Origin: Escherichia coli
Lineage (GTDB): Bacteria > Pseudomonadota > Gammaproteobacteria > Enterobacterales > Enterobacteriaceae
Strand: one strand, 5' to 3'
Assembly: GCA_011600865.1 (NCBI GenBank)
Contig: GCA_011600865.1_4890.1
DNA: 52,276 bases
Position numbers and translations under genes: made by a program
Shown here: in pieces, positions 16,110-37,785 of the stretch
Position numbering within the stretch: position 1 is the stretch's first letter
Layout of the letters: each line of letters begins with the position of its first letter
Notes under the pieces: model-generated
The model's database searches: none
Told to the model about the DNA's origin: nothing
The model's input: the letters and a program-made list of their open reading frames with translations, nothing else

Positions 16110-18076
16110 TGAGCTTTTTATTCGATAGCTTTGAAGGTGCAAAGAATGTTAAACCTATCAGCCGTCCTATACCATACGTCAGGGATACTGGATGGCGGCC
16201 GCGCGCGCATTACCCGGATTTGTCTTCTGCGAAGATTATCGGTCTTGACTGTGAAACATACGACCCAGGGATGGATACAAATGGTAGTGGTTGGGCCAGG
16301 AGGGAAGGTCATATCGTTGGAGTTAGTATCGCTACGGACAATGGCTTCAAGGCTTACTACCCAATCAGACACGAGCTCGGCGAAGAGGATAACCTTCCAG
16401 CTGAGGAAGTACTTGGTTGGCTTCGGCGCGAACTCTCGCGACCTAACCAAGTTAAAGTCGGTGCTAACATCACATATGACTTGGGCTGGCTTGCAGCAGA
16501 AGGCGTGGAAGTCAAAGGATTGTGCATGGATGTACAATTCGCGGAAGCATTACTCGACCCAGGCGCGCGTGTTGCACTTGAAGGACTTGGACGAAAATAT
16601 GTAGGCGAAGGTAAAGACTCAGCCGAGATGTACCAATGGATTTCAGATGCTTATGGATGTAAGCCAACAGGTGAAGCCAGAAAGTACATCTACAAAACGC
16701 CTCCTCGTCTTGTGGGTTACTACGCTGAATCTGACGCCGACTTACCAATACACATTATCAAAGCCCAGTGGCCTTTGTTAAGTCGCTGGTGTTTAACAGA
16801 CGTATTCTATATGGAGTGCAAGCTCATTCCATTAATGCTTAAGATGCGTTTTGCAGGTGTGCGTGTTGACCTTGACAAAGCCAAAGAGGCTGATGATACG
16901 CTTAGCGCTGAAATAAGGAAAATGCACCAGCAGATTAAAGACCAGATTGGCTTTAATATTAACGTTAACTCAGGTCCTGATTTAGCACTTGCATTTGACC
17001 ATTTAGGTCTGGAGTACTTCAAAACAGCGGCGGGTAATCCGTCGTTTACGGCAGACTTCTTAGCAGGTTTGCACCATCCGTTCGCGGAACTGGTGTCTGA
17101 GATTAAGTCTTATGAGAAAATCCAGTCCACGTTTATTCGTGGCTATATATTGGGGATGAATACAAATGGCTTCCTTCACGGTCAATTCCATCAAATGCGC
17201 GGTGATGACGGTGGAACCGTTAGTGGTCGGTTTAGCTCATCTGACCCTAATCTGCAGAATATACCGTCTCGACACAAAATACTGGGACCACTCCTTCGTG
17301 CTTGTTTCGTACCGGACGTCGGACACAGATGGGGATCAGCAGACTACGCCCAAATTGAATATAGATTCATGGCGCATTTTGCAGTCGGCCCGGGCGCTGA
17401 TGAGTTACGAGCAATTTTCGCGGCTAACCCGGAAGCAGATTACCACAATGTTATGGTCGATATTATCAAGGAAGCATCAGGTCACGTTATAGAGCGTAAA
17501 CCGGCTAAGACCATCAACTTTGGTTTGTTATACGGCATGATGCTTAATGCTCTTGCCCGTAAGTTAGCAATGACGCCTGAAGAAGCAGAACCTGTTCTGA
17601 AGGCGTATCATCAGGGTGCGCCATTTATCGGCGCTACCATGAAGCACTACGAGGATTTATGCTATAGCCAGGGGTACGTAGAAACCTTTATGGGCCGGAA
17701 GACATGGTTCAACAAATGGGTTCCAAAGCGTGGTGGATTCGGTAAGATGCCTTTGCCATTTGAAGAAGCACGTCAGGAGTACGGTCCGAACATTAAACTG
17801 GCAGACACCCACAAGGCAATCAACCGAGTGCTGCAAGGGTCGTCAGCGGACCAGATGAAGTCTGCAATGCTGAAAGGATATGAAGACGGTTACTTCGACG
17901 TGATTGGCGTACCTCGCCTGACGGTACACGATGAGCTTAACTTCTCTCTACCAGCTGGTAAGCAAGCAGAAGATGGATTCTATGATTTCGTACGGGTCAT
18001 GGAAACTGTGCTACCGCTTCGTGTACCTGTTCTTACTGATGCTAAGATAGAAAGTAACTGGGCAGAGGCACACTAA
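16109..18076 (+). CDS. Family A DNA polymerase with 3'-5' exonuclease domain
   Basis: Exo I motif LDCETYD; polymerase motif A DYAQIEYR, motif B RKPAKTINFGLLYGM and motif C VHDE. Confidence 0.92.
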   Translation: MSFLFDSFEGAKNVKPISRPIPYVRDTGWRPRAHYPDLSSAKIIGLDCETYDPGMDTNGSGWARREGHIVGVSIATDNGFKAYYPIRHELGEEDNLPAEEVLGWLRRELSRPNQVKVGANITYDLGWLAAEGVEVKGLCMDVQFAEALLDPGARVALEGLGRKYVGEGKDSAEMYQWISDAYGCKPTGEARKYIYKTPPRLVGYYAESDADLPIHIIKAQWPLLSRWCLTDVFYMECKLIPLMLKMRFAGVRVDLDKAKEADDTLSAEIRKMHQQIKDQIGFNINVNSGPDLALAFDHLGLEYFKTAAGNPSFTADFLAGLHHPFAELVSEIKSYEKIQSTFIRGYILGMNTNGFLHGQFHQMRGDDGGTVSGRFSSSDPNLQNIPSRHKILGPLLRACFVPDVGHRWGSADYAQIEYRFMAHFAVGPGADELRAIFAANPEADYHNVMVDIIKEASGHVIERKPAKTINFGLLYGMMLNALARKLAMTPEEAEPVLKAYHQGAPFIGATMKHYEDLCYSQGYVETFMGRKTWFNKWVPKRGGFGKMPLPFEEARQEYGPNIKLADTHKAINRVLQGSSADQMKSAMLKGYEDGYFDVIGVPRLTVHDELNFSLPAGKQAEDGFYDFVRVMETVLPLRVPVLTDAKIESNWAEAH

Positions 18077-18091
18077 TTAAAGGTCTATAAT

Positions 18092-18367
18092 ATGTCTAAG
18101 ATAGGTTTAGAGTATGAGGCAGATGAAACGCTTAAGTTAAGGGCGAAGGAGATACTAGACGCCTCAGGCTGCACGTCAGGCCTGGACTGGTTTACGAAGA
18201 TATTCCAGGAAGAACCAGAAGCTGTTGCCAAAAAGATTTACAAGAGTAATACTTTACGACAGGATATTCCTGTGCTGTGCTTCCAGATACGTGGCGATGA
18301 TGATTGCTGGACGCAACAGCTATGCGATGAATTAGAAACCCTGTATTGTGAAGAAGAGGGAAAATAA
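18092..18367 (+). CDS. Hypothetical protein
   Basis: 91 aa acidic ORF after the polymerase gene. Confidence 0.55.
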   Translation: MSKIGLEYEADETLKLRAKEILDASGCTSGLDWFTKIFQEEPEAVAKKIYKSNTLRQDIPVLCFQIRGDDDCWTQQLCDELETLYCEEEGK

Positions 18368-18591
18368 TGATTGAGACTACACGCACATCAGACCTTAATG
18401 ATATGGCGGCAGAAGCTGAACAAGTGGCCCGTGACACAGCACTGTTAAACCGTGTCAGATATACAGGCGTAAGTCCGCTGATGTGTTACCAGTGTGGGGA
18501 TGATATTGAAGAAAAGCGTCGTCAGCTTTTACCTGGTACAGTATTGTGCGCGGCGTGTGCGCAGTATAACGAACTAAAAGGTAAACGTTAA
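18367..18591 (+). CDS. TraR/DksA-like C4 zinc-finger protein
   Basis: 74 aa with CYQC ... 17 aa ... CAAC spacing typical of the TraR/DksA zinc finger. Confidence 0.6.
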   Translation: MIETTRTSDLNDMAAEAEQVARDTALLNRVRYTGVSPLMCYQCGDDIEEKRRQLLPGTVLCAACAQYNELKGKR

Positions 18592-18596
18592 TAAGC

Positions 18597-18619
18597 AAGG
18601 GGCCTTCACTCGGCCCCTT
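18597..18619. terminator. Bidirectional intrinsic terminator between convergent gene blocks
   Basis: Perfect 8 bp stem aaggggcc / ggcccctt with loop ttcactc, between the plus-strand stop at 18591 and the minus-strand stop at 18606. Confidence 0.5.
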
Positions 18620-18914
18620 TGTTGCTCCAGTTAATTATGCTGTCCATCTTGTCTGCACAGTCATCAAGAGCTGTTCCGCGTTCAATAGCTAACTGGCCTA
18701 TTGCTTTCCAGGTATTACCGGTTAATTCAGGCTTATGGCATTTAACCATGTAGGCGCCAGGCGGATAAACCTTGACTATCCTGTCAACATAAACAACTTC
18801 AGGCTTATCAGCGCACGAGGTCAAGAACGGCAGAAGGAGCAACGGTATTAGCACACGAATCATCTTTTGTCGCTTCGTCATATTTACCTTTCTTATCACG
18901 CAGTTGTTGTTCAA
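18606..18914 (-). CDS. Outer-membrane spanin (o-spanin, Rz1-like lipoprotein)
   Basis: Signal peptide with lipobox-like LTSC (MIRVLIPLLLLPFLTSC); the true start is probably an internal Met (MTKRQK or MIRV). Overlaps the 3' end of the i-spanin gene. Confidence 0.6.
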   Translation of the reverse strand: MNNNCVIRKVNMTKRQKMIRVLIPLLLLPFLTSCADKPEVVYVDRIVKVYPPGAYMVKCHKPELTGNTWKAIGQLAIERGTALDDCADKMDSIINWSNKGAE

Positions 18915-19137
18915 GCTCAGCTATCTTACTGGCGCGTTTGGCTGAAGCCTCACGCTCATCCTTTACGGAGTTAATCAGCGTTTGATTAGCAGCAGATAAC
19001 TCGCCATTGGTTTTGTTAAGCTGTTTGATTGTACCGTCGCGGTCGGCAACATCACCTTTCAGCTCACGTACCCACAAAGACAAGAACATAATGGCGATGC
19101 CGAGAATAGCTGCAATTATTGCGCCGGTTTTAGACAT
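18808..19137 (-). CDS. Inner-membrane spanin (i-spanin, Rz-like)
   Basis: N-terminal transmembrane helix IIAAILGIAIMFLSLWV followed by a charged coiled-coil region; position after the endolysin. Confidence 0.6.
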   Translation of the reverse strand: MSKTGAIIAAILGIAIMFLSLWVRELKGDVADRDGTIKQLNKTNGELSAANQTLINSVKDEREASAKRASKIAELEQQLRDKKGKYDEATKDDSCANTVAPSAVLDLVR

Positions 19138-19691
19138 AAAGCTTTTTCCTTTTGCTTACGTATTGTCAAGCCCCTGTACTTGCCACCCATATCCCAGTCA
19201 GTTATGCGATTACACATTTCCGTCCAGTTTTGTTTACGAGCAGCAGTATATATTTTGGTAGGCGAGCCATCCTTGTTCTTACGGAGTCTAGTGCAGCCAT
19301 GGTTGAATACCATAGATGTCATGGCACTGAACTGATTGGTGTTCATATCTTTACCGTGGAACCAGTCATTAACACACTTTTCAGCCTCTTGAATATTCTT
19401 GACCCAGCGGTCAGCAATCTCCTGGTCTGTCAAGCCTTCGCGGCGTACAGCGGGCTCATCGTTGTAGATGCGGCTACCAATACCAACTGTTAAATAACCA
19501 GTAGGGCACACATACGGGTTGCGCATACAACCTTCTGCATTACCGATTATCTCAAGACCTTCTTTATTAGTACGGACATGCGTACTTGTCATCGACAGAA
19601 CAAGCCCGATGATAGCGAGCACGCTACAGCCTCCTTTAGTCGCTGCTGATTTCAGACTCACGCAACACCTCTTCTTTCGATGCGACTTCAT
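19116..19691 (-). CDS. SAR endolysin (T4 lysozyme family, P1 Lyz-like with cysteine regulation)
   Basis: N-terminal weakly hydrophobic SAR-like segment CSVLAIIGLVLSMTS; lysozyme core EGLEIIGNAEGC...YVCPTGYLTVGIGS with Glu, Thr and GIG of T4 lysozyme, but Cys at the position of catalytic Asp20 and an EGC cysteine. Confidence 0.85.
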   Translation of the reverse strand: MKSHRKKRCCVSLKSAATKGGCSVLAIIGLVLSMTSTHVRTNKEGLEIIGNAEGCMRNPYVCPTGYLTVGIGSRIYNDEPAVRREGLTDQEIADRWVKNIQEAEKCVNDWFHGKDMNTNQFSAMTSMVFNHGCTRLRKNKDGSPTKIYTAARKQNWTEMCNRITDWDMGGKYRGLTIRKQKEKALCLKPAQ

Positions 19692-19896
19692 CCTCTATCG
19701 GCTTCTTACGATTGTAATAATCCGACATAATTTTGGTTCGCCGTGTTTGGTTATACGTAACAACAATAAGCATCACTAACGAGCTGAGTATACCGATAAT
19801 AGTACCCCAATCACTTAGTGATAAAGTACTTACTGTTATTGTTACCCAAGCCACAAACTGGCCAATAAGGGAAGGCTTGTCGTTGTAGTCAAACAT
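19636..19896 (-). CDS. Holin (pinholin-like, two transmembrane segments)
   Basis: Start refined to the ATG at 19896 with GGAGAT RBS; two hydrophobic helices (FVAWVTITVSTLSL and GTIIGILSSLVMLIVVTY) and a charged C-terminus; directly upstream of the SAR endolysin. Confidence 0.55.
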   Translation of the reverse strand: MFDYNDKPSLIGQFVAWVTITVSTLSLSDWGTIIGILSSLVMLIVVTYNQTRRTKIMSDYYNRKKPIEDEVASKEEVLRESEISSD

Positions 19897-19998
19897 CCCA
19901 TATCTCCGGTTTATTGTACACCCAGAGTGGATTATAGCACGACTCAAGCATAAAAGAAATGCTACCAGCAACTGCACAAGCTTGCTGGTAGCAATTAG

Positions 19999-20502
19999 TT
20001 ATGGTCGTACAGGCCAGTCAATATGCGGCGCATCTGACATTACAAGCAACATCAAATCAGCACGGAATTTATGCAAAGCGATGATACGTTCTTCATCCTC
20101 TTCAGTGTCGAGTTGCTCTTCAACCCAAGCCTGTTCTTCCTGCAGGCGCTCTTCTGCAATTGCTAACTGCAGTTCCGAGTGCTTAACGAATTTGCCATTA
20201 ACGTAAGACCACTCGTAATAGCAATCCGCAAACTTATCAGCAGGCACAGAGTCAACAATATGCAAATCACAGTTAACAGGAAACAGCAACGTAGGATTGT
20301 TAGAATACGCCGCCACAGCATTGTACTTATCCACAACAATATAGTGAACCAGCTCTTTATTCTTAGCCAGCTCTTTAGCCAACTTGCGCCAGTCATTACC
20401 GTTGTTATCCTTGATGAATACAACGCCTTGCTTAATCAGCGGAAGTGTCTCCGCCGTCCTTTGTGGGTTGTATTCTGTAAAGTTGAAAAATGACAGTTGC
20501 AT
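19999..20502 (-). CDS. Tail fiber assembly protein (Tfa chaperone), paralog 2
   Basis: 167 aa; clear paralog of the adjacent 180 aa protein (FFNFTEYNPQ vs FRNFTMYHPE; NDWRKLAKEL vs RDWYNLAKEL); Tfa-like C-terminus ending DWPVRP. Confidence 0.65.
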   Translation of the reverse strand: MQLSFFNFTEYNPQRTAETLPLIKQGVVFIKDNNGNDWRKLAKELAKNKELVHYIVVDKYNAVAAYSNNPTLLFPVNCDLHIVDSVPADKFADCYYEWSYVNGKFVKHSELQLAIAEERLQEEQAWVEEQLDTEEDEERIIALHKFRADLMLLVMSDAPHIDWPVRP

Positions 20503-20505
20503 GGT

Positions 20506-21048
20506 TTACTCCGGCATAGGTGGAACAACCATAGCGGAACCAAGATTAACGTCAAGACGATTGACAGCAATCCTGTAATCACGCCATTTAGCAAACAGCT
20601 CTTTTTCTTCATCGGTAGCATTGCCACTATCAACTGTGTCGCGTAAAACACTGACCTTGGTCGAAGCGATGGACAGAGCTTGTTCTTTACGCTCACGAGC
20701 AATCTCCTTCATCATTGGTGCGTTAAGCGTAAACTCTTTACCGTCGAAAAGCCATTCGCCGACAGTCTCGAAGATATTGAAAGGCGGGTCGTATGTTACA
20801 ACCATATCACAACCCACAGGATGGAACATAGTCGGGTCGGTATGTGCAGCAATTACAACTCCGTTCTTATCTATCTGCAAGAACGTTGCGCCTTCGTATT
20901 TGATAACTAACTCTTTTGCGAGATTGTACCAGTCGCGACCTTCCTCATCCTTGAGGAAGATTGCACCAGCATTTACAATGTTCTCGTTCTCTTCTGTTAC
21001 CTCAGGATGGTACATGGTAAAATTACGGAACACCTTATGCTTAGTCAT
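20506..21048 (-). CDS. Tail fiber assembly protein (Tfa chaperone), paralog 1
   Basis: 180 aa immediately downstream of the tail fiber gene; Tfa-like C-terminal region WRDYRIAVNRLDV...PPMPE. Confidence 0.65.
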   Translation of the reverse strand: MTKHKVFRNFTMYHPEVTEENENIVNAGAIFLKDEEGRDWYNLAKELVIKYEGATFLQIDKNGVVIAAHTDPTMFHPVGCDMVVTYDPPFNIFETVGEWLFDGKEFTLNAPMMKEIARERKEQALSIASTKVSVLRDTVDSGNATDEEKELFAKWRDYRIAVNRLDVNLGSAMVVPPMPE

Positions 21049-21057
21049 AGTAAACCT

Positions 21058-22398
21058 TTACGATACGTTGCTTACGTTAATCCAAGTGCCGTTGATATAA
21101 TACTGTAACGGCGCTGACCAGTACGAGCCACCGCGCAGCTCTTTTTTATCGCCGAAGCGCCAGCCAGTCATTACATGCCCACGGTAGAACGTTGACTCGG
21201 ATACACCAGCAGCAATACGAGCGCCGAGTCGAATACCCCGAACGTTACCGGCTGAAGTATCGATAGGCTGCGGGTTGTTAGGTGAATATACTCTAACACC
21301 ATTCTCGCATAAAATAAAGCTGTTTGTGGTAGTTACTCTGCTGTTAAGGCCATCTACCTGCAAAGCTACTGTACGACGGTCGGCAATACCACCAGGGCGA
21401 CACACTGCCATGTTAATCTGGGTGGCACCACCTGCCGTAAGAATGTGCTGGATATGTGACATAGGCACAGAACCCCAGCAAGCCGCAGTGATAACGTTAC
21501 TGTTAGCCGCAACAGAAACAGAAGTCAGCAACTCCTGAACAGCAGTACCGCCTGCAATGTTACCGGAGTACTCAACAGTACCTACGCCGGCGGAGTTAGC
21601 AGCACGCAGCAAGTCGGAAGTAGTACGTGCAATATGTAACCAGCCGATAGTACCTAAGTTACCACGGATTGAGTCAGAACCATCCATAGGGATGAAGTCC
21701 TGGTTAATACCCAGCTCAGCGGCCGTAGGTTTATTGTCAGGCCCGTAAGAGTATGACCAGCCACCCCAGGTATTGTTAACCTTCTCACGCATAGCAATTA
21801 CGCGCTTACCTTTGGTTCGTGCCCACTGTGAAGCGTTATTAGCATCCCAGTTGATGTGCAGAATCTCAGTCTCAACGCCGTTAGTAGGTCCGCCAGTACC
21901 TGACGCTGGAAGCTGATAGATACCGTCATCTGTAATGCTGTTAGCATTAGTAACGACTTCAGCATTACCACCTAAGCCAAACGCTCCAACCTGGATTACG
22001 TTACCAGAGGCTTTACCTATCTGACGTGCTGCAGCAGACGCAGCGGTCAGGTCGAGTACAGGACGCCACTGCGTGGGGTTAGCCGACGGTACCATGTTAA
22101 TATTTTGCACCAGACAACGGTACAGCATATTGTCAGCATTAACTTTAACCAGTGCACCAACCGGGTAGGTCTCAGTTTCTACCCATACGTCAACACCCTG
22201 CTGTAGGATGTAGTGGATACCTTTGTCAGTACGGTTACCGATAAAGTTAAACCACTCCATCGGAGGAATACCTTCCGAGTAGCCGAGGGTTGCACCCCAG
22301 CCTCGAGCAAGGTCACCGAACGGCAGCAGTTCACCAGTACCCGCTGAGCTGGCGAAGATGTCGTTATCGGGTCTTGTTTGTACATCAGCCATATACAT
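21058..22398 (-). CDS. Tail fiber protein
   Basis: 446 aa Gly/Ala/Thr/Asn-rich protein upstream of two Tfa chaperone genes and downstream of the baseplate genes. Confidence 0.6.
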   Translation of the reverse strand: MYMADVQTRPDNDIFASSAGTGELLPFGDLARGWGATLGYSEGIPPMEWFNFIGNRTDKGIHYILQQGVDVWVETETYPVGALVKVNADNMLYRCLVQNINMVPSANPTQWRPVLDLTAASAAARQIGKASGNVIQVGAFGLGGNAEVVTNANSITDDGIYQLPASGTGGPTNGVETEILHINWDANNASQWARTKGKRVIAMREKVNNTWGGWSYSYGPDNKPTAAELGINQDFIPMDGSDSIRGNLGTIGWLHIARTTSDLLRAANSAGVGTVEYSGNIAGGTAVQELLTSVSVAANSNVITAACWGSVPMSHIQHILTAGGATQINMAVCRPGGIADRRTVALQVDGLNSRVTTTNSFILCENGVRVYSPNNPQPIDTSAGNVRGIRLGARIAAGVSESTFYRGHVMTGWRFGDKKELRGGSYWSAPLQYYINGTWINVSNVS

Positions 22399-23044
22399 TC
22401 ACCTGTGCTGGTAAGTTTACAGTAGCATAACGGTACAGGCTATCTGTAACGTCAACGCTCGTATTAAGTTCAATCTTCACCCCTGTGGGGCGCGGAAGAA
22501 TATCGTAGTTCTGAATCAACACTTGCTTAAGCGGAGTCAGAGTACTGTATATCTCCAGAGTCATTGTCATATCTTCGTTGTCAGTTATAACGAAGTTATT
22601 CATTCCGAAGAATTCAATCAGGAAGTCAATTAAATACGGCATAGTACCGTCTTGCATGTTCTTCCAGATTTTCATCTTGATGTAAGTACGCAGGTCAATA
22701 TCATCAAGAATTACCGGGTCCCATATTGATGCACCGTAACGGTAGAACGGACCGCCTTTATTACCAGACGAACCGCCGAAGCCAAGCACGTCTGGTACTT
22801 TATTGGTAAAACCGAAGAACTTACGGTCTACGCCTTTTTTAAGAACACGAGAGGCACCAACTCGGGCTGCAACATTATCAAGACCTTTACCGAAAGCTTT
22901 ATCAATATTAAGACTATCAACAACTTGTTGTGCGCCATCCCAGATGCCTTGAATAGCATCATCGAAGCCTTGAATAGTTGCAACAGCTTTTGGTTTATCA
23001 GCGTACTGCTGAATAAGTAGTTTATGATATTCAGCCATCAGCAT
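22385..23044 (-). CDS. Baseplate-associated protein (DUF2612-like)
   Basis: 219 aa between the baseplate J-like gene and the tail fiber gene; assignment by position and general resemblance to Mu-type baseplate clusters. Confidence 0.4.
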   Translation of the reverse strand: MLMAEYHKLLIQQYADKPKAVATIQGFDDAIQGIWDGAQQVVDSLNIDKAFGKGLDNVAARVGASRVLKKGVDRKFFGFTNKVPDVLGFGGSSGNKGGPFYRYGASIWDPVILDDIDLRTYIKMKIWKNMQDGTMPYLIDFLIEFFGMNNFVITDNEDMTMTLEIYSTLTPLKQVLIQNYDILPRPTGVKIELNTSVDVTDSLYRYATVNLPAQVNVYG

Positions 23045-24203
23045 TCACCACTGCAATAGTGATACGGTTCGCAGCGAATATTGCACGCTCAAGAGCAGTG
23101 ATACGCAGAATCGTGTCTGTTGACGGATTAGGTGTTTTACCCACAAAGAACGTCTTGATGTAGAAGTTCGGGCTTACACCGTTAGCTTCTTGAATCAGCT
23201 GGCCCAGTTCGTAAGTCGATACCTCTTCACCGATATTGTATACCTTGGACAGAATAGCATTCTTAATAAGGTCCTCGGAAACGTCGGTAAACAGTTCCTT
23301 ACGAGCTACAACGAGTGAAGCATACGCCTCAACATAAGTAGGCTGACTCCATTTCATTGTGCGCTGTGTACCTGATTTATCCGTAATCTGATACGACACA
23401 GTACCAATCTGCGTACAGCCATTAGTCTTACGACGGAAGATACAGTCAGCAATAGCAGCAGGCGAACCGCCATCCACAACAATCTGCATACTGTGAGGAG
23501 GTAAGCCAGTTAACGGGTCTTGTGTGCTTTCTTCGTTCTCGTAACCGTTACATGCGATAACATCAGTCATCTGACGAATCTCAGCAACAATACCATCGAC
23601 GCTGTTCGTGCCAGGTTTGCCGTAAGAAGCATATGCCCGGTCTATTGCCTCAGAGTCGAGTTCAGTGGACGCACCGCCAGACGACACTTGCATGTTTGTA
23701 ACTTTACGTACACCAGAAACAATAGTCTGTGGCTTAAGCTCGTCGTTTGCAAGTACGACAAAGCGTCCAGTCTTAACAGAGCTGAAGCTTGTTTCAACTA
23801 CACCGTTATCATCCAGCGCAACGGTGGAGTTAAGCTGGTACACGTTATTCGAGCTGTCAGTTACATAGTAAGGAGTACGTATAATAGTGTTACGGTCACC
23901 TTCAATCTTAACCCTGGTCAACAGCGTTGACATCTCGCCTTTACGCTGAAGCGCTACGTAGGCAAGGAACTGGTCTACGTACACACCAGACGCCTGGTTA
24001 GGGTCAAGCATAGAAAACAGAATTGCAACTTGCTCGTCCTGGTCTGCAAACATCTGCGCCAGAATACCAACCATTTGTCCGTCAGCAGACTTAGCTGACA
24101 AATCAATATCCGCGCCATACACACGACGGAAGAGCGTTTCGAATCTGCTGATCCAGTCGTCGAGCTTGACGGGAACATAGCCTGTGCTAGTTACAGAGCC
24201 CAT
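23031..24203 (-). CDS. Baseplate J-like protein
   Basis: 390 aa in the gp45-gp46-gp47-gp48-like order of Mu/P2-type baseplates; assignment mainly positional. Confidence 0.5.
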   Translation of the reverse strand: MGSVTSTGYVPVKLDDWISRFETLFRRVYGADIDLSAKSADGQMVGILAQMFADQDEQVAILFSMLDPNQASGVYVDQFLAYVALQRKGEMSTLLTRVKIEGDRNTIIRTPYYVTDSSNNVYQLNSTVALDDNGVVETSFSSVKTGRFVVLANDELKPQTIVSGVRKVTNMQVSSGGASTELDSEAIDRAYASYGKPGTNSVDGIVAEIRQMTDVIACNGYENEESTQDPLTGLPPHSMQIVVDGGSPAAIADCIFRRKTNGCTQIGTVSYQITDKSGTQRTMKWSQPTYVEAYASLVVARKELFTDVSEDLIKNAILSKVYNIGEEVSTYELGQLIQEANGVSPNFYIKTFFVGKTPNPSTDTILRITALERAIFAANRITIAVVNADG

Positions 24204-24574
24204 CAGTTTTCTCCGGTTAAATTAATACTTCTGTTAATAGAGGTTGTGTTGTGATAAATATCATTAACCTCAACCGAATAAACAGCGTGACGGGAGTCAG
24301 GGTCGAAGCTTAGGGTAAAGCTCTCGATAGAACTAACTCCATACTCCGCAAGTATTGCTGTCTTGATTGCAGCCTCCAGGTCAGCCCATCGAACAGGCTT
24401 CTCCATTAGTCCGAACCAGTCAATGCCATAGTCCAGGTCATGTACCCAGTCCATAGTATAACAGCGGAGTATCTGCACGATACGTTGTTCAATGGACTCA
24501 GACGTATCGGCGTAGTCAAGTCGGCCACGCCCAAAATTCCAGTCCCAGTTTGAATCGAGTCGTCTAGTTCGCAT
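24203..24574 (-). CDS. Baseplate protein (Mu gp46-like / GPW-like)
   Basis: 123 aa ORF start-stop coupled to the J-like gene. Confidence 0.4.
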   Translation of the reverse strand: MRTRRLDSNWDWNFGRGRLDYADTSESIEQRIVQILRCYTMDWVHDLDYGIDWFGLMEKPVRWADLEAAIKTAILAEYGVSSIESFTLSFDPDSRHAVYSVEVNDIYHNTTSINRSINLTGEN

Positions 24575-24584
24575 TGTGGGTTAC

Positions 24585-25232
24585 CTAGTTTTGCGGGCCA
24601 TTAGTAATACCACCACCGTCACCGTTTTCTTGGTGTCTGTGTTCGGACATCTTAACGCCGCCAATGTCAACTTCTTTAAACTTGGCTTCTGTGTTTGGTG
24701 CATTAAGTGTTGGTGTATCAAGCAAGTCCACTGCTGTAGCCTTTATCGATACCTTGCCAGCATTGTTAATATTGATATAGTGGCTACCATCAACCTTACG
24801 GATAGTTACACCTTCCATCCAGTTTGTTATCTTCAGAGGTTTAGGTCTGAAGCCCACAAGACAGAAGCAGTCTGACATGTCGTTCTGTCGGAAGTCACCT
24901 GGTATAGCGTTTTCAGCCAGCTCATACCATACGTCAATACACCTGTCAGCAACAAGAAGTAAGCACGGGTCGCCTTTCTTCGGTTCGAGCGTTATAACAA
25001 AATCACCGCCGCCTAGCTGGAATAAAGGAACATCAGCTGCTGGCGGTAACTGCCTCATTGAACCATCTTCGTTTTCGGCGCTAACCATAGGCTCAACAAC
25101 AACAGTCTGTAGGTCACTGTTAAACGATACTATACGACCGGGTAAACAGTGGCGCTTACCAATCATTGCAGCAAACAGTGCGGCCTCAATGGCCTCGTCA
25201 AGTGTTGCTGTGTTATAGTCAATAGCTGACAT
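24585..25232 (-). CDS. Baseplate assembly protein (gpV / central spike-like)
   Basis: 215 aa, Gly-rich C-terminus, position upstream of the gp46/J-like genes. Confidence 0.4.
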   Translation of the reverse strand: MSAIDYNTATLDEAIEAALFAAMIGKRHCLPGRIVSFNSDLQTVVVEPMVSAENEDGSMRQLPPAADVPLFQLGGGDFVITLEPKKGDPCLLLVADRCIDVWYELAENAIPGDFRQNDMSDCFCLVGFRPKPLKITNWMEGVTIRKVDGSHYININNAGKVSIKATAVDLLDTPTLNAPNTEAKFKEVDIGGVKMSEHRHQENGDGGGITNGPQN

Positions 25233-26212
25233 CAGCTACCTCCGCCTACTGTATGGTCAACACCGGGTTCAGTAACATAGTCGTACTCAATCTTAGACAG
25301 TTTGCGTGGCTTCTTGAGTCTACGAACTTTCTTCGCGAACTGTCCACCAAGAACCGTCAAGTCAGCACGCCACGGTCCTTTCGGTTTATTGTCACCCCGA
25401 AATCTTATAGTGTCGATTTTATACTGTCCGTTGTACTGTGTAAACATAGAATTTACTTGTACGAGACCACCAATGGCCAGAGTAGGATTCAGGTTACAAG
25501 TAACCTCAAGACCTTTGTCTGTGCCGCGAGGAGCACCAATCATACCAGACGATTCTGACAGCACAACAACGTCATAGTCAGTAGCAGAGTCGTTAGGAAT
25601 GATATTGAGTTTATTGTCTTGTATAGACCAGGTAGCCTTGTTGGCAGCAGCAACCTGGTCGAGTACACTGTGCGTTTGTCCGAACAGAGTACGTGCCCGT
25701 AGGAAAGCTGGTTTGTTGTTATCAAGGCAGACATACCCTTCTTCAACGTTTGGCATACTAGCCAGGCAAACGTCAACAACACTGTCATACGTAGAGCCAG
25801 CGGCCAGCGTCGTATTAACAAAGCCATCGTTGTAAGACTTACGGGCATCGCCACATTCGAGAACAGTCTGAATATCAAGGCCGTTTCGTTGGTCATTAGC
25901 ACGAGTAATATCACCTTCGAATATCAAGCGATAAACTATGTTGTCAAGACCGTAACCCACAGAGAGGCGGACGTAATCCCAGGTACCTGACGCCAACTTA
26001 TAACGGTTGGATTCAGTCAAGTTGAACACTGTGATTGTCGCTTTATTTGGATGCTTCGTGTTACCCTTTTGAATGTCAAAGGTAACACGAAGATTTGAGA
26101 TGATTATACCTTCATCTTTACCGTTGCTGACCTCAAGCTTTAACGCGCGGCCAAACTGACGGGTAGGCTGTTTTGTCGACGATGTAGACACTGCAACGTC
26201 CTCCCATGTCAT
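25232..26212 (-). CDS. Tail/baseplate protein
   Basis: 326 aa in the tail morphogenesis block; its 5' end overlaps the upstream ORF by about 80 nt, so the true start may be an alternative codon further downstream. Confidence 0.4.
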   Translation of the reverse strand: MTWEDVAVSTSSTKQPTRQFGRALKLEVSNGKDEGIIISNLRVTFDIQKGNTKHPNKATITVFNLTESNRYKLASGTWDYVRLSVGYGLDNIVYRLIFEGDITRANDQRNGLDIQTVLECGDARKSYNDGFVNTTLAAGSTYDSVVDVCLASMPNVEEGYVCLDNNKPAFLRARTLFGQTHSVLDQVAAANKATWSIQDNKLNIIPNDSATDYDVVVLSESSGMIGAPRGTDKGLEVTCNLNPTLAIGGLVQVNSMFTQYNGQYKIDTIRFRGDNKPKGPWRADLTVLGGQFAKKVRRLKKPRKLSKIEYDYVTEPGVDHTVGGGS

Positions 26213-31357: not shown

Positions 31358-33490
31358 TTATGCTGCATCGACGGACTGATAAGAGCTGTCCGACGCTGTA
31401 GCGTTTCTCACAGTTACTGTGGCACCAATACGACATCCACCGTCACCAACGCCAGTAATAACACCAGTATTACTTACAGTAGCGACAGTATCGTCTGTAG
31501 TTGTATACTGAATGTTATAGCCCGGGTCTGTCTTAGCGTATTCAGGACTAACAGTTACAACGAGCTGCTGAGTGTTACCAACAGTAAGTGCAGGCAGCGA
31601 ATCAGTAGTAACAGAAAGCTCAGACACGTAAGGAGATGTTGTATCAGAAGCAGCAACACCATTCATTACAACGTTAGCAGTAATAGCTGCTGAACCTTCA
31701 GAGTTAGCAGTCATCAAGCCATTTGCATCTATGCTAATGATAGAGTCATCTGACGAGCTATAAGTAACAGTAACGCTCTTAGAGTCCGACGGATAAATCT
31801 CAACACCAAGTTGTTTGGTGTTACCCACAAGCCATTCATCGTACTGCAGGTATACCTGTACCCTCTCAGAAATTTGTGCCCAAGCAGCTGAGCTAATGTC
31901 AGCGCCATTACTAGTTGCGTAAATCCAGATATTACATCCGCCCTCAGCAACACCAGTTACAACGCCAGACGAATCAACAGTCGCAATAGCTGGGTCAGCA
32001 GATTCATAACGAATATCAGTTAGATCCGCATCAGACGGGCTAACAGTATAAGTGAACTGCTGAGTACCACCAATTGGAATACCACCAAGACCATCTGGTG
32101 TAATAACAGCCACCTCCGTGCAAGTCGCTACAAATGAAGCCTCAAGCCCACCGTCGTCTGTTGTAACTGTAATAGTCGAAGTTCCAGGAGATTGACCGTA
32201 TATAACTCCGTTAGTGTCAACAGTAACAGCGCTTGGGTTTGAGCTGTTATAACTGACTTCTTTATTGGTTGCGTTGTCAGGTGTTATAACAATTTTAGTT
32301 TGCACCTGATGACCAGCACTCACTTTAGTCGGAGAATCAGGAGCCCATGCAACGCCTGTAACTGCGATGCTAGGGTCTGTAACGTTAACCTCAATGCTAT
32401 CGGTAAAGCCCCCGTCATTAGTCATAACAGTAACGTCAATTAAGCCTGCAGCGTTAGCAGTTACCAAACCAGCTTCAGTCACAGACGCAACTTCTGACAC
32501 AGGAGCACTCCATACAACAGATGGGTCAGTAGCATTTTCAGGAGTCACGGTGGCATGCAGCTGAAGAGTGTCTCCAACTTCCATGGAGGCTGTAGCGCCT
32601 TCATCAATACTTACACCGGTAACATTTACAGCAGGCACCCTGACTATAATATCAAGAGTGTCAGTCTTATCGCCGTCATTCGTCTTAACAGTAACAGTGG
32701 CATTACCAGCTACAATACCAGTAACATTTCCGTCAGTATCCACAGTTGCTACATCAGGCTCACTGCTTTCGTACGTCACTGTTTTGTCAGTGGCGTCTTC
32801 TGGCGATATACGAATACTCGTCTCAGCTGTGCTTCCGATATTAACGTTAAGAGGTGACTGAGTAAGAAACTCAACTCCTGTAACGTGCACAACAGGAGGA
32901 ATAACAGTTACTGTACAGCTATCGAATATAGAGCTGTCAACACCGTACTGTACGTTTACAGTTGTTTCGCCATCTCCAATTGCAGTGACGAGCCCGCTGT
33001 CGCTAACGACAGCAACAGACTCATCATCTGAAATCCAGTAGAAATCAGTATTATCTGCATTAACAGGTAAATAGGTGTATGTCAGACGTTGAGTCTCACC
33101 CTCTTCAAGCGTCACGCTTGTGGGAGACACTGTAACAGATTCAACAAGGATAGGTGCTTGAGCAACATTGAACTTTGCTCGTACAGTATAACCGCCATCA
33201 ACAGACGTACCAGTCACGTATGCAACACCTTCCGCCAGCGGCTTTGCAAATCCGAGCTCATCAACGGTGATAACGTCTGAGTCGCTAGATTCCCATACCA
33301 TACCACGCTCAGTAGCGTTGGTTGGAATGTAGAGCACAGCTAGCTGAACAGGGTCATCATCCGCAACGATTGAGTACTCGTAGTTGTAAAGCATTATGCC
33401 TTCCAGCGGAACATTGGGGGTAAAACCTTTACCCCCGTTGCTCTTACTGAACTGGACGTCGACAACCTCATCAAGTGGAAGCGACATCAA
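31358..33490 (-). CDS. Virion protein with tandem bacterial Ig-like (Big_2-type) domains
   Basis: 710 aa with at least six roughly 80-90 aa repeats following the pattern VTGV...L.VG.T.QL...V.P..AT...V.W.S.....ATV...G.VT....G...I. Confidence 0.75.
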   Translation of the reverse strand: MMSLPLDEVVDVQFSKSNGGKGFTPNVPLEGIMLYNYEYSIVADDDPVQLAVLYIPTNATERGMVWESSDSDVITVDELGFAKPLAEGVAYVTGTSVDGGYTVRAKFNVAQAPILVESVTVSPTSVTLEEGETQRLTYTYLPVNADNTDFYWISDDESVAVVSDSGLVTAIGDGETTVNVQYGVDSSIFDSCTVTVIPPVVHVTGVEFLTQSPLNVNIGSTAETSIRISPEDATDKTVTYESSEPDVATVDTDGNVTGIVAGNATVTVKTNDGDKTDTLDIIVRVPAVNVTGVSIDEGATASMEVGDTLQLHATVTPENATDPSVVWSAPVSEVASVTEAGLVTANAAGLIDVTVMTNDGGFTDSIEVNVTDPSIAVTGVAWAPDSPTKVSAGHQVQTKIVITPDNATNKEVSYNSSNPSAVTVDTNGVIYGQSPGTSTITVTTDDGGLEASFVATCTEVAVITPDGLGGIPIGGTQQFTYTVSPSDADLTDIRYESADPAIATVDSSGVVTGVAEGGCNIWIYATSNGADISSAAWAQISERVQVYLQYDEWLVGNTKQLGVEIYPSDSKSVTVTYSSSDDSIISIDANGLMTANSEGSAAITANVVMNGVAASDTTSPYVSELSVTTDSLPALTVGNTQQLVVTVSPEYAKTDPGYNIQYTTTDDTVATVSNTGVITGVGDGGCRIGATVTVRNATASDSSYQSVDAA

Positions 33491-37162: not shown

Positions 37163-37785
37163 TATTCAATCCATCCACCGTTAAAGAAACCCATCCAAGT
37201 TGCTCCTGAGTCAAAGGTAAGCAACGTAACAACATCTGTGTAACCCACAAGGAATGACAGAACGGGCTTTCTGTTGTTTGCCCATTTTATTCTGGGGTCC
37301 CAAGTGGTCACCTTGTTAGAACCAGTACCTTGCTTAATAGCAATAGTAATCTGACGCGCAACAGTAGACGGGTCAGACACATCACCGATATTAATTACGG
37401 TGTTTGGCTGGTTAAGAGTAAGACTGACAATTGTTTTAGATGCAGCTGGTATAGTCACTGTAGCTGCACTTGCAACGTTGCCGTACTCATAGATTGCTGA
37501 CGTCGAAGATACTGTAGCCTGTTCAGCTGCAGTTTCTGCAGCATTCTTGGCTTCTATAGCAGCATCACGAGCAGCACGAGCCTGTATAGCAGCTTCGTTA
37601 GCACTTTCAAAGTTTGGTATAGCTTCATTGATTGCAGCGTTAATGCCTTCGAGTGTGCGTATGACACCACCTTCCGGGTTAGGGATGTTTGGGTCGTCTG
37701 ACATACCGAAGTCATGAATGAGCTGGACAGCAGTTGTTAGCTTATCCAGCTGCGCTTGCAGTTCCGGGTCTACTTCAGTTGCCAT
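37162..37785 (-). CDS. Hypothetical virion protein
   Basis: 207 aa, Ala-rich helical N-terminal half; coupled to flanking structural genes. Confidence 0.5.
   Translation of the reverse strand: MATEVDPELQAQLDKLTTAVQLIHDFGMSDDPNIPNPEGGVIRTLEGINAAINEAIPNFESANEAAIQARAARDAAIEAKNAAETAAEQATVSSTSAIYEYGNVASAATVTIPAASKTIVSLTLNQPNTVINIGDVSDPSTVARQITIAIKQGTGSNKVTTWDPRIKWANNRKPVLSFLVGYTDVVTLLTFDSGATWMGFFNGGWIE

Follow-up and report, generated by a model that had tools for sequence, protein, structure and literature searches.

The window, that is, the whole stretch of 52,276 nucleotides that was analysed, is essentially a complete Rosemountvirus (BP63-like) genome; in relatives the sequence runs on across its joined ends, bar about 170 bp at a repeat region, and for this reason it is regarded as the whole genome. 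The locus of interest consists of a tail fiber gene followed by two genes for tail fiber assembly (Tfa) proteins, Tfa1 and Tfa2, all on the minus strand and separated by gaps of 9 nt and 3 nt (Table 1). The original prediction of two paralogous chaperone-like genes at this place was confirmed, the open reading frames being exact and on the minus strand and the relationship being recovered by BLASTP, PHROG and hhalign. The fiber protein is 96% identical to BP63 gp44, and relatives start it two codons downstream, at the ATG at 22392, which gives 444 aa as in the BP63 annotation. All proteins of the fiber/Tfa module of BP63 are 95–97% identical to those of the window, and the Loughboroughvirus orthologs are 43–71% identical.

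Table 1 Features of the fiber/Tfa locus and of other tail genes in the window
Feature	Position	Strand	Basis or remark
Hairpin and U-run directly 3' of the Tfa2 stop	19957..19996	-	Inverted repeat I7
Tfa2, diverged Tfa paralog, 167 aa	19999..20502	-	phrog_136
Tfa2 shortened acidic helical hairpin	19999-20178	-	
Tfa2 Mu-Tfa-like N-domain	20179-20502	-	
Tfa1/Tfa2 junction CCGGAGTAAaccATG	20500..20512	-	Shine-Dalgarno GGAG within last Tfa1 codons; stop-start gap 3 nt
Tfa1, canonical Mu-gpU-type tail fiber assembly protein, 180 aa	20506..21048	-	Pfam Caudo_TAP (PF02413), phrog_136
Tfa1 helical C-domain	20506-20724	-	
Tfa1 N-domain, aa 1-108	20725-21048	-	
Apparent horizontally exchanged cassette: fiber tip, intergenic region and Tfa1 N-domain	20650..21270 (approximate)	-	Sliding DNA identity, window vs L021
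Fiber tip module, type A	21058..21276	-	After conserved SPNNPQP(I/V)D motif
Tail fiber / receptor-binding protein	21058..22398	-	446 aa from first ATG; phrog_30316 'tail fiber protein', full length, E = 0
DUF2612 / Phage_Wedge1 baseplate protein	22385..23044	-	Pfam DUF2612, E 3.9e-39
710-aa Ig-repeat protein	31358-33490		Big_2 repeats
985-aa tail protein	34205-37162		PHROG label
207-aa 'tail fiber protein'	37162-37785		PHROG label

Directly upstream of the fiber gene, and overlapping its start, lies a DUF2612 gene, the counterpart of which in the metagenomic sister lineage L021 (found on seven contigs longer than 50 kb) matches PF11041 Phage_Wedge1. Since this baseplate gene adjoins and overlaps the fiber start, the fiber is considered to be attached to the baseplate. 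At the other end of the module, the hairpin that follows the Tfa2 stop folds as RNA with -23.7 kcal/mol (z -4.4), is followed by UUUCUUUUAU and is 92% identical in L021 over the region; it is likely an intrinsic terminator closing the tail/fiber operon. A simple terminator scan overlooked it because the loop is above the 8-nt limit of the scan, and the region was folded directly instead. At the junction of the two tfa genes, the pattern CCGGAGTAA(n2-3)ATG is kept in L021 and in ZCSE2, and the arrangement suggests that Tfa2 is probably translationally coupled to Tfa1. As part of the overall explanation to which we give a slight preference, the locus would make up the distal part of the late tail operon, in the order fiber, Tfa1, Tfa2 and then terminator.

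Tfa1 and Tfa2 share 36% identity over aa 7–124 in BLASTP (E 4e-23), and hhalign pairs their family profiles from end to end (probability 99.7%, E 1e-26). The two have diverged along their whole length, as had been predicted, with identities of 34% in the N-domain and 18% in the C-domain. Tfa1 is a regular member of its family; it scores 51.3 bits with Caudo_TAP (E 1.7e-13), above the gathering score of 22.1, matches phrog_136 'tail fiber assembly protein' with E 3.8e-42 and aligns by sequence over its full length with Mu Tfa U (PDB 5yvq_B, E 7e-11). Tfa2 also matches phrog_136 (E 1.5e-30), and its Caudo_TAP score of 18.9 bits is below the gathering score of 22.1. AlphaFold2 models of Tfa1 and Tfa2 (pLDDT 90.4 and 90.3, respectively) have their secondary-structure elements in the same order, and both show a two-domain fold made of an alpha/beta N-domain and a C-terminal helical hairpin. 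When the Tfa2 model, and this model only, was compared with the PDB by Foldseek, the sole significant match was again 5yvq_B (E 3.4e-7, probability 1.00, TM 0.76).

The C-domains differ in the turn between the two helices. A conserved turn motif (consensus ..LQDAVDxGxAT[DE]EE..) is present in Tfa1 (VLRDTVDSGNATDEE); Tfa2 lacks these 11 residues between L131 and D132, and the same deletion is found in the Tfa2 of L021 and of Loughboroughvirus. Among the aligned homologs, the 11-residue deletion is unique to the Tfa2 lineage, two others having a partial, 7-residue gap. Because this conserved turn is deleted, Tfa2 is regarded as an atypical member of the Caudo_TAP/gpU family. The C-domain is also more acidic in Tfa2 than in Tfa1 (-11 vs -1, -6 vs +2 and -3 vs 0), which gives a weak hint of complementary pairing with Tfa1. 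The closest outgroup, both to the Tfa1 N-domain (38%) and to full-length Tfa2 (31–35%), is the Tfa of the phi92-like phage alia. Matched over its full length, Tfa2 scores better with phi92-like Tfa proteins (E 5e-27 to 1e-34) than with Tfa1 (1e-20), and its C-terminal 'AP.I.WP.RP' ending resembles that of phi92-like Tfa more than that of Tfa1; the Tfa1 C-domain groups with the single Tfa of the one-tfa sister clade. At domain identities of 18–38%, which are too low for a reliable tree, the origin of Tfa2 may be sought in duplication in situ or in acquisition.

The exchangeable tip corresponds to the last ~72 aa of the fiber. The window carries tip type A, which is common to the fibers of phi92-like Justusliebigvirus, and its tip is 71–74% identical to that of alia vs 32–38% to those of ZCSE2, KE25 and L021, the fiber body being 79–87% identical. 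The last ~60 aa of the fiber are 74–79% identical to the phi92-like fiber, and at the DNA level positions 21058–21235 match Justusliebigvirus at 72%. The fiber homolog of phage S144 was modelled on the Mu gpS tip (PMC7432712), and the SD286 homolog gp66 has served as a positive control for receptor-binding proteins (PMC12946066). A phmmer search of the fiber against the PDB gave no significant match to Mu gpS, so the Mu-like nature of the tip rests on the published modelling of the S144 protein, a 71%-identical homolog. The literature examined on these phages names no receptor for Rosemountvirus.

Comparison across related phages, which had been proposed as a check for cassette exchange or inversion, revealed exchange at the locus. 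Between the window and L021, sliding DNA identity is 75–90% upstream, falls to 22–53% inside the cassette and recovers to 60–67% in the Tfa1 C-domain and 80–84% at the start of Tfa2, with breakpoints at ~21270 and ~20650. The protein identities follow the same course: the baseline is 88–94% and the fiber body 87%, and the values are 38% for the tip, 29% for Tfa1-N, 51% for Tfa1-C, 74% for Tfa2-N and 61% for Tfa2-C. In a further pair, SE4 and ZCSE2, identities are 88% (tip), 74% (Tfa1-N), 88% (Tfa1-C), 95% (Tfa2-N) and 76% (Tfa2-C). Taken over three comparisons, the N- and C-domain identities are 29/51, 30/59 and 74/88% for Tfa1 and 74/61, 42/48 and 95/76% for Tfa2. According to the modular Tfa model of North et al. 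(2019), as far as it is set out in PMC9608196, the variable N-domain binds the tip and the conserved helical C-domain drives trimerisation. Judged from these sequence comparisons, the exchanged unit is the fiber tip together with the Tfa1 N-domain, and Tfa2 lies outside the unit and appears to be inherited vertically; this covariation argument rests on few events because just three independent two-tfa lineages are available. The co-exchange of tip and Tfa1 N-domain and the deletion in the Tfa2 hairpin are new relative to the S144 publication.

Rosemountvirus (about 45 records), Loughboroughvirus and L021 all carry both tfa genes, and every two-tfa genome examined has an intact, syntenic Tfa2. 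In an exhaustive phmmer search the Tfa2 lineage proved narrow, comprising two clusters (50% identity) at E ≤ 1e-30; word-indexed protein searches for it gave 2 and 7 matches, a metagenome scan one fragment, and IMG/VR scans for further members the known isolates only. The expectation that a fiber usually has one cognate chaperone holds for the nearest outgroups, with one tfa gene each in KE25, fHy-Eco03, SOI901 and the phi92-like alia. The one-tfa sister clade and the phi92-like phages build homologous fibers, tip types B and A among them, with a single Tfa, and hence Tfa2 is not universally needed for fibers of this kind. Purifying selection on Tfa2 is as strong as on Tfa1 (dN/dS 0.07–0.12): the values for Tfa1 and Tfa2 are 0.107 and 0.082 in Rosemountvirus and 0.119 and 0.070 in Loughboroughvirus, and Tfa2 of the window gives 0.089 against L021. 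At the same time, the identity of Tfa2 is below the genome baseline, at 69% vs ~90% with L021 and 44% vs ~80% with ZCSE2. Strict conservation and synteny of both paralogs, named beforehand as the finding that would speak against the original prediction, is essentially what is seen within the two-tfa clade. A 'third tfa' in LPSEYT and a repeat in rivia were considered as signs of plasticity at the locus and rejected: the two are exact tandem duplications (127 and 207 bp), which most likely arose in assembly or very recently and do not represent variants of the cassette.

What Tfa2 does has to be weighed against this background. It had been suggested that the second copy is a remnant of a host-range switching cassette or serves a second fiber encoded outside the window, and it had been noted that no inverted partner fiber or recombinase is present nearby. 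The latter observation was borne out: tblastn over the whole window with tip types A–D and four Tfa proteins returned just the fiber and the two tfa genes, an approximate Gin-type invertase probe had no match in the whole window at E ≤ 5, no recombinase is annotated in BP63, ZCSE2 or KE25, and no flanking inverted crossover sites were found, the repeats in 17500–25500 being 14–24 nt long, imperfect and no better than chance. That the two genes are what is left, in degenerate form, of a Mu/P1-type invertible S-U / U'-S' switch, as might be read from both proteins being gpU homologs and from the names 'U' and "U'" given to homologs by the depositors of phage S1, is extremely improbable in a complete genome with co-oriented genes, no S' tip fragment or invertase, inverted repeats at chance level and purifying selection on both proteins. 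The suggested cassette remnant does not fit Tfa2 itself either, which is on the same strand, intact and outside the exchanged unit, with no alternative tip or invertase at hand. A second fiber outside the window is contradicted by the window being the whole genome, inside which no second Mu-S-type tip exists. It is quite unlikely, too, that Tfa2 chaperones another virion protein encoded in the window, namely the 207-aa 'tail fiber protein', the 985-aa tail protein or the 710-aa Ig-repeat protein. Such a client would explain why Tfa2 does not track the tip of the 446-aa fiber; the candidates bear PHROG 'tail fiber' or 'tail protein' labels, and the 710-aa protein diverges between genera about as fast as the Tfa proteins (48%). 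However, no candidate resembles the fiber or its tip, the 710-aa protein is built of Big_2 repeats, a further 'tail fiber' of 298 aa turned out to be a Dit-like baseplate protein, and none was accepted as a second Tfa-dependent fiber. The 207-aa and 985-aa proteins are 78–84% conserved between genera vs 44% for Tfa2, the one-tfa sister clade retains homologs of all candidates (53–79% identity) without Tfa2, and Tfa2 lies in the fiber operon, apparently coupled to Tfa1.

The demonstrable replacement of a cassette at the locus would also suit a scenario in which a new tip-plus-tfa cassette was inserted upstream of a resident tfa gene, leaving Tfa2 as a spare chaperone with little present function. 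The affinity of Tfa2 to phi92-like Tfa proteins over its full length and in its C-terminal ending, the grouping of the Tfa1 C-domain with the single Tfa of the sister clade, and the one-tfa relatives, in which a fiber of this type does without a second copy, all agree with it. This scenario is nevertheless decidedly unlikely, as Tfa2 shows a dN/dS (0.07–0.09 within two genera and across lineages) no higher than that of Tfa1, its reading frame and the Shine-Dalgarno/coupling junction are intact in all genomes seen, and it persists in compact virulent genomes across divergence down to 44% identity. Moreover, the N-domain is the more conserved half of Tfa2 (74–95%), unlike in a decaying gene; a pseudogene or decaying remnant in the strict sense is ruled out by dN/dS and the intact reading frames. 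Alternatively, Tfa2 might have been re-purposed beyond folding, as a transient cap shielding the tips from lysis debris or as some other factor built on the Tfa fold that contacts the host or has a regulatory task. In favour of this are the absence from Tfa2 of the motif that is best conserved among Tfa C-domains and supposedly serves trimerisation, a pattern of domain conservation opposite to that of canonical Tfa proteins, and published proposals that other fiber chaperones cap tips transiently or touch the receptor (PMC10579305; PMC9608196). This, too, is unlikely: a tip-binding cap should covary with the tip, which Tfa2 does not, Tfa2 was not detected in S144 virions (PMC7432712), and Pfam and PHROG return Tfa families alone, with no independent sign of an alternative activity.

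The evidence leans towards Tfa2 assisting the assembly of the same fiber as an auxiliary factor that does not depend on the tip. One baseplate-attached, Mu-gpS-like fiber would be served by two Mu-gpU-type Tfa proteins, which would presumably both act as chaperones. Tfa1 would be the canonical cognate chaperone, its variable N-domain recognising the tip and travelling horizontally with it, and its conserved helical C-domain supplying the general trimerisation function. Tfa2 would be an old paralog, older than the split of Rosemountvirus, Loughboroughvirus and the third, metagenomic lineage, probably translated via coupling to Tfa1 and retained by purifying selection; having lost the conserved turn of its C-terminal hairpin, it would stay in place when the tip changes. 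Should it serve as a co-chaperone of general scope or form hetero-oligomers with Tfa1, a change of host range would need a swap of the tip and the Tfa1 N-domain only. The rapid divergence of Tfa2 counts against this explanation, since a fully conserved partner would not obviously predict Tfa2 outpacing the baseline. A more specific version, put forward tentatively, is that Tfa2 is subfunctionalised, having given up both tip recognition and the canonical trimerisation turn to become a constant partner, possibly pairing through its acidic hairpin with the Tfa1 C-domain. If true, this would describe a 'plug-and-play' fiber in which host range is changed via a ~600-bp cassette (tip plus Tfa1 N-domain), and a previously undescribed way for paralogous fiber chaperones to share the work. 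Which hosts a phage can infect is set by its tail fibers and their chaperones, the parts swapped when phages or tailocins are retargeted, and both Rosemountvirus and Loughboroughvirus are widely isolated as biocontrol candidates for Salmonella and E. coli. As a guide for fiber engineering, the natural exchange unit would comprise the last ~72 fiber residues and the first ~110–130 residues of Tfa1, the second Tfa being kept constant.

The same module, with the same gene order and homologous proteins, is known from ORF31–ORF33 of the Loughboroughvirus S144, a fiber with two gpU-like chaperones (Gambino et al. 2020; PMC7432712), and from gp44–gp46 of Rosemountvirus BP63 (RefSeq), where the annotation already calls the two chaperones tail fiber assembly proteins. 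Compared with these, the window is another isolate with nothing different in kind, and the finding as originally stated is ordinary because the two-Tfa arrangement has been annotated and published. Neither chaperone was detected in S144 virions and the authors left their roles open, not separating the two and expecting similar ones (PMC7432712). No other related tandem or dual Tfa system was found in the literature searched, the search being partly unspecific. The phi92-like Justusliebigvirus (alia gp028/gp029; phi92 gp148) shares the tip type and has a related Tfa; however, there is a single Tfa and an unrelated fiber body, and the phage is a myovirus of 145 kb from another subfamily. In relation to gpS/gpU of phage Mu (PDB 5YVQ; North et al. 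2019), Tfa1 resembles gpU by sequence and Tfa2 resembles the gpU N-domain by fold, and the variable N-domain of Tfa1 follows the fiber tip as in the Mu model. Mu has one Tfa per tip, with U' tied to the alternative tip on an invertible segment, whereas the window has two Tfa genes on the same strand and one tip; in addition, Mu gpU stays on the fiber, whereas the S144 chaperones were not detected in virions, and Tfa2, unlike gpU, lacks the conserved C-domain turn. The switches of the Mu G-segment and the P1 C-segment likewise have two gpU-family genes beside a fiber gene with a host-range tip, but they work by Gin or Cin inversion, whereas the window has no inversion architecture and change appears to occur by horizontal replacement of tip and Tfa1 N-domain between genomes. 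A possible functional analogy is offered by T4, where gp57A (general) and gp38 (specific) are two factors for one fiber, a comparison already raised for S144 (PMC7432712). The T4 proteins are unrelated to each other and to Caudo_TAP, whereas the pair in the window are paralogs, and Pfam and PHROG scans gave Tfa1 and Tfa2 families of the Tfa/Caudo_TAP type only, with no homology to gp57A or gp38. By analogy, the pattern of a tip-specific Tfa1 and a tip-independent Tfa2 would be compatible with a dual-chaperone scheme of one general and one fiber-specific factor.

The three genes, a tail fiber gene and the two small genes Tfa1 and Tfa2 behind it, lie as originally predicted, with an exact match to the minus-strand ORF calls. 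The two small genes are indeed paralogs, on the combined evidence of BLASTP (36% identity over residues 7-124, E 4e-23), of their common match to phrog_136 'tail fiber assembly protein', and of hhalign, in which the alignments of the two families matched over their full length (99.7%, E 1e-26). Tfa1 passes the threshold of Pfam Caudo_TAP and matches the sequence of Mu gpU (5yvq_B, E 7e-11); Tfa2 falls just below that threshold and its gpU match is weak. The AF2 model of Tfa2 is confident (pLDDT 90.3) and its sole significant PDB neighbour is the Mu Tfa (Foldseek, E 3.4e-7, probability 1.00, TM 0.76); in the Tfa1 model (pLDDT 90.4) the secondary-structure elements come in an identical order, but the C-terminal helices are longer. 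One fiber is accompanied by two expressed-looking, selected paralogs of the Tfa fold, of which Tfa2 is structurally atypical. The arrangement is already an annotated and published property of the phage group: in RefSeq, BP63, SE13, yarpen and further genomes have the pair labelled as tail fiber assembly proteins, this fiber with a pair of tfa genes recurs in the sister genus Loughboroughvirus, and the fiber homolog of another Rosemountvirus was used as an RBP positive control in a 2026 paper (PMC12946066). Only the asymmetry in how Tfa1 and Tfa2 evolve is new.

Coordinates of the fiber locus and of other features in the window
Feature	Position	Strand	Description
Fiber	21058-22398	-	ORF call, 446 aa
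Tfa1	20506-21048	-	ORF call, 180 aa
Tfa2	19999-20502	-	ORF call, 167 aa
Tfa1 C-domain	20506-20724		used for net charge
Tfa2 C-domain	19999-20178		used for net charge
Shared fiber tip	21058-21235		last ~60 codons
Second variable fiber patch	21750-21960		~aa 145-215
Hairpin and U-run	19957-19996	-	-23.7 kcal/mol, z -4.4
Extended -10 element	19931-19939	-	TGCTATAAT
Ig-repeat protein	31358-33490		710 aa, Big_2, 'major tail protein'

The asymmetry was seen on comparing the window with L021, a metagenomic sister lineage reached by way of a Tfa2 homolog of 69% identity and present on seven contigs above 50 kb. Baseline proteins of the two are 88-94% identical (the holin, at 79%, left out) and the fiber body 87%, with 38% for the fiber tip, 29% and 51% for the N- and C-domains of Tfa1, and 74% and 61% for those of Tfa2. 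DNA identity is 75-90% down to ~21270, drops to 22-53% across the tip and Tfa1 N-domain, and climbs again to 60-67% over the Tfa1 C-domain, with 80-84% where Tfa2 begins. Between SE4 and ZCSE2, both Loughboroughvirus, the N/C values are 74/88 for Tfa1 and 95/76 for Tfa2; between genera they are 30/59 and 42/48. Discrete tip types, A (window and alia), B (ZCSE2 and KE25), C (SOI901) and D (L021), are found despite fiber bodies that are 64-87% identical. The natural unit of exchange is the fiber tip together with the Tfa1 N-domain, which is moved horizontally; Tfa2 lies outside this unit, does not track the tip and is vertically inherited. Cassette exchange among relatives, raised in the original prediction, is therefore real at the locus but does not involve Tfa2.

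A more distant sister clade of KE25, fHy-Eco03 and SOI901 carries a homologous fiber (~61% identity) and a single Tfa, nearer to Tfa1. KE25 (PP856724.1), although filed as Rosemountvirus, is probably a member of another genus: it has only ~67% DNA identity at the locus and one tfa gene, and it groups with fHy-Eco03 and SOI901, an Erwinia phage. The shared tip of the window is 72% identical in DNA and 74-79% in protein to the short-fiber tip of the 145-kb Justusliebigvirus (alia, with a single Tfa, PHB05 and phi92 relatives). The remainder of the fibers is unrelated and the adjoining Tfa N-domains are only 38% identical, which suggests that tips have passed between unrelated groups of myoviruses. 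Two records labelled 'Campylobacter phage', A150 and A110a (MG065639.1, MG065689.1), are 146-kb phi92-like coliphage genomes, and PP583539.1, entered as 'Listeria phage 220426122051', shares 94% identity with the Salmonella/E. coli Rosemountvirus locus; these host labels look doubtful, perhaps through contamination or mislabelling. Apart from the tip, a second variable patch of the fiber has 52-60% DNA identity to ZCSE2, against 75-90% in its flanks.

In every Tfa2 ortholog, 11 residues are missing from the turn that links the two C-terminal helices; with them goes the family's best-conserved motif (…LQDAVDxGx…), and this loss accounts for the sub-threshold Pfam score. Among homologs aligned after 1.84 billion representative proteins had been searched exhaustively, full loss of this motif was found only in the Tfa2 lineage; two other homologs had 7-residue gaps there. 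The Tfa2 lineage is a narrow one and falls into two 50%-identity clusters at E<=1e-30. In all three lineages the C-domain is more acidic in Tfa2 than in the co-encoded Tfa1 (net charge -11 versus -1, -6 versus +2 and -3 versus 0), a weak hint that the helical domains of the two proteins could pair.

The fiber follows the baseplate genes, directly downstream of a DUF2612/Wedge1 protein gene, and is separated from Tfa1 by 9 nt and Tfa1 from Tfa2 by 3 nt. The Shine-Dalgarno GGAG of Tfa2 lies within the final codons of Tfa1 (CCGGAGTAAaccATG) and this junction is kept in two further lineages, so that translational coupling appears likely. Directly after the Tfa2 stop come a hairpin with a U-run, an extended -10 element and a holin, endolysin and spanin cassette; hence, Tfa2 is the final gene of the tail operon, and the lysis cassette seems to have its own promoter just past the terminator. 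A 113-aa 'holin' ORF listed from GTG 19977 begins within this terminator; ATG 19896 (86 aa), the start used in the BP63 annotation, is probably the true one.

Over 19000-24000 the window is 94-95% identical in DNA to ~45 deposited Salmonella/Escherichia Rosemountvirus genomes, including BP63, SE13, yarpen and SPLA2, and its 52,276 bp compare with 51.7-53.4 kb. When its last 700 and first 700 bases were fused and matched to these relatives, they ran contiguously across the join except for ~170 bp where a repeat region is annotated. The window is thus essentially a complete phage genome, and a fiber 'outside the window', as once suggested for the second chaperone, cannot exist. The ~170 bp absent at junction 1/52276, which the relatives carry in a repeat_region flanked by the primase and RusA-like genes, might be a repeat copy, terminal or direct, that the assembly collapsed.

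It is scarcely credible that the pair is the relic of an inversion switch for host range. Tblastn of the whole genome gave no second tip, third tfa or invertase-like ORF, bearing out the noted lack of a partner segment or recombinase nearby; inverted repeats are short and imperfect, and both paralogs are under purifying selection. The dN/dS values (NG86) of Tfa1 and Tfa2 are 0.107 and 0.082 in Rosemountvirus (n=10 sequences) and 0.119 and 0.070 in Loughboroughvirus (n=5); for Tfa2 of the window against L021 the value is 0.089, with dS near saturation. Two apparent variants were set aside as tandem duplications, probably assembly artefacts or very recent: a perfect 127-bp copy over the Tfa1/Tfa2 junction of LPSEYT (L002, 2018-2271), giving an annotated third 'tfa' ORF, and a 207-bp, 99.5%-identical copy in the rivia fiber (L003, 3666-4078), an annotated repeat_region that truncates the annotated fiber. 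In the 47-kb SPHG1 (MW413353.1), only 88% identical, the ORFs of all three genes differ in length (461, 191 and 160 aa), a pattern that fits indel errors in sequencing rather than true variation.

We infer that Tfa1 is the tip-specific chaperone, and we lean towards Tfa2 being an auxiliary factor, independent of the tip, in the assembly of that one fiber, perhaps in concert with Tfa1. The main evidence against this reading of Tfa2 comes from one-tfa relatives, which manage without it to build fibers of this kind, with the same tip types among them. A role outside folding, for instance as a transient cap, is rather unlikely, and service to a different client protein appears slightly less probable; the other genes labelled 'tail fiber' encode a Dit-like baseplate protein, an Ig-repeat protein and proteins of 207 and 985 aa, and no similarity of the latter two to the fiber was found. 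Least favoured of these, a spare copy retained after an earlier replacement is improbable. As a separate observation, among the structural proteins only the two Tfa proteins differ more between genera than the 710-aa Ig-repeat protein (48% to ZCSE2, 38% to KE25), which may be under diversifying pressure as a further host-interaction or decoration protein.

The asymmetric evolution of the auxiliary-factor candidate Tfa2 and of Tfa1 gives a testable hypothesis of division of labour. For the Loughboroughvirus phage S144, a fiber resembling Mu gpS and two chaperones resembling gpU were described; neither chaperone was detected in virions, their roles were left open, and the pair was likened to T4 gp57A/gp38 (Gambino et al. 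2020; PMC7432712). In the modular model of Mu Tfa, as summarised in PMC9608196, a variable N-domain binds the tip and the helical C-domain is conserved (North et al. 2019); Tfa1, with an N-domain that varies with the tip and a conserved C-domain, conforms to this model.
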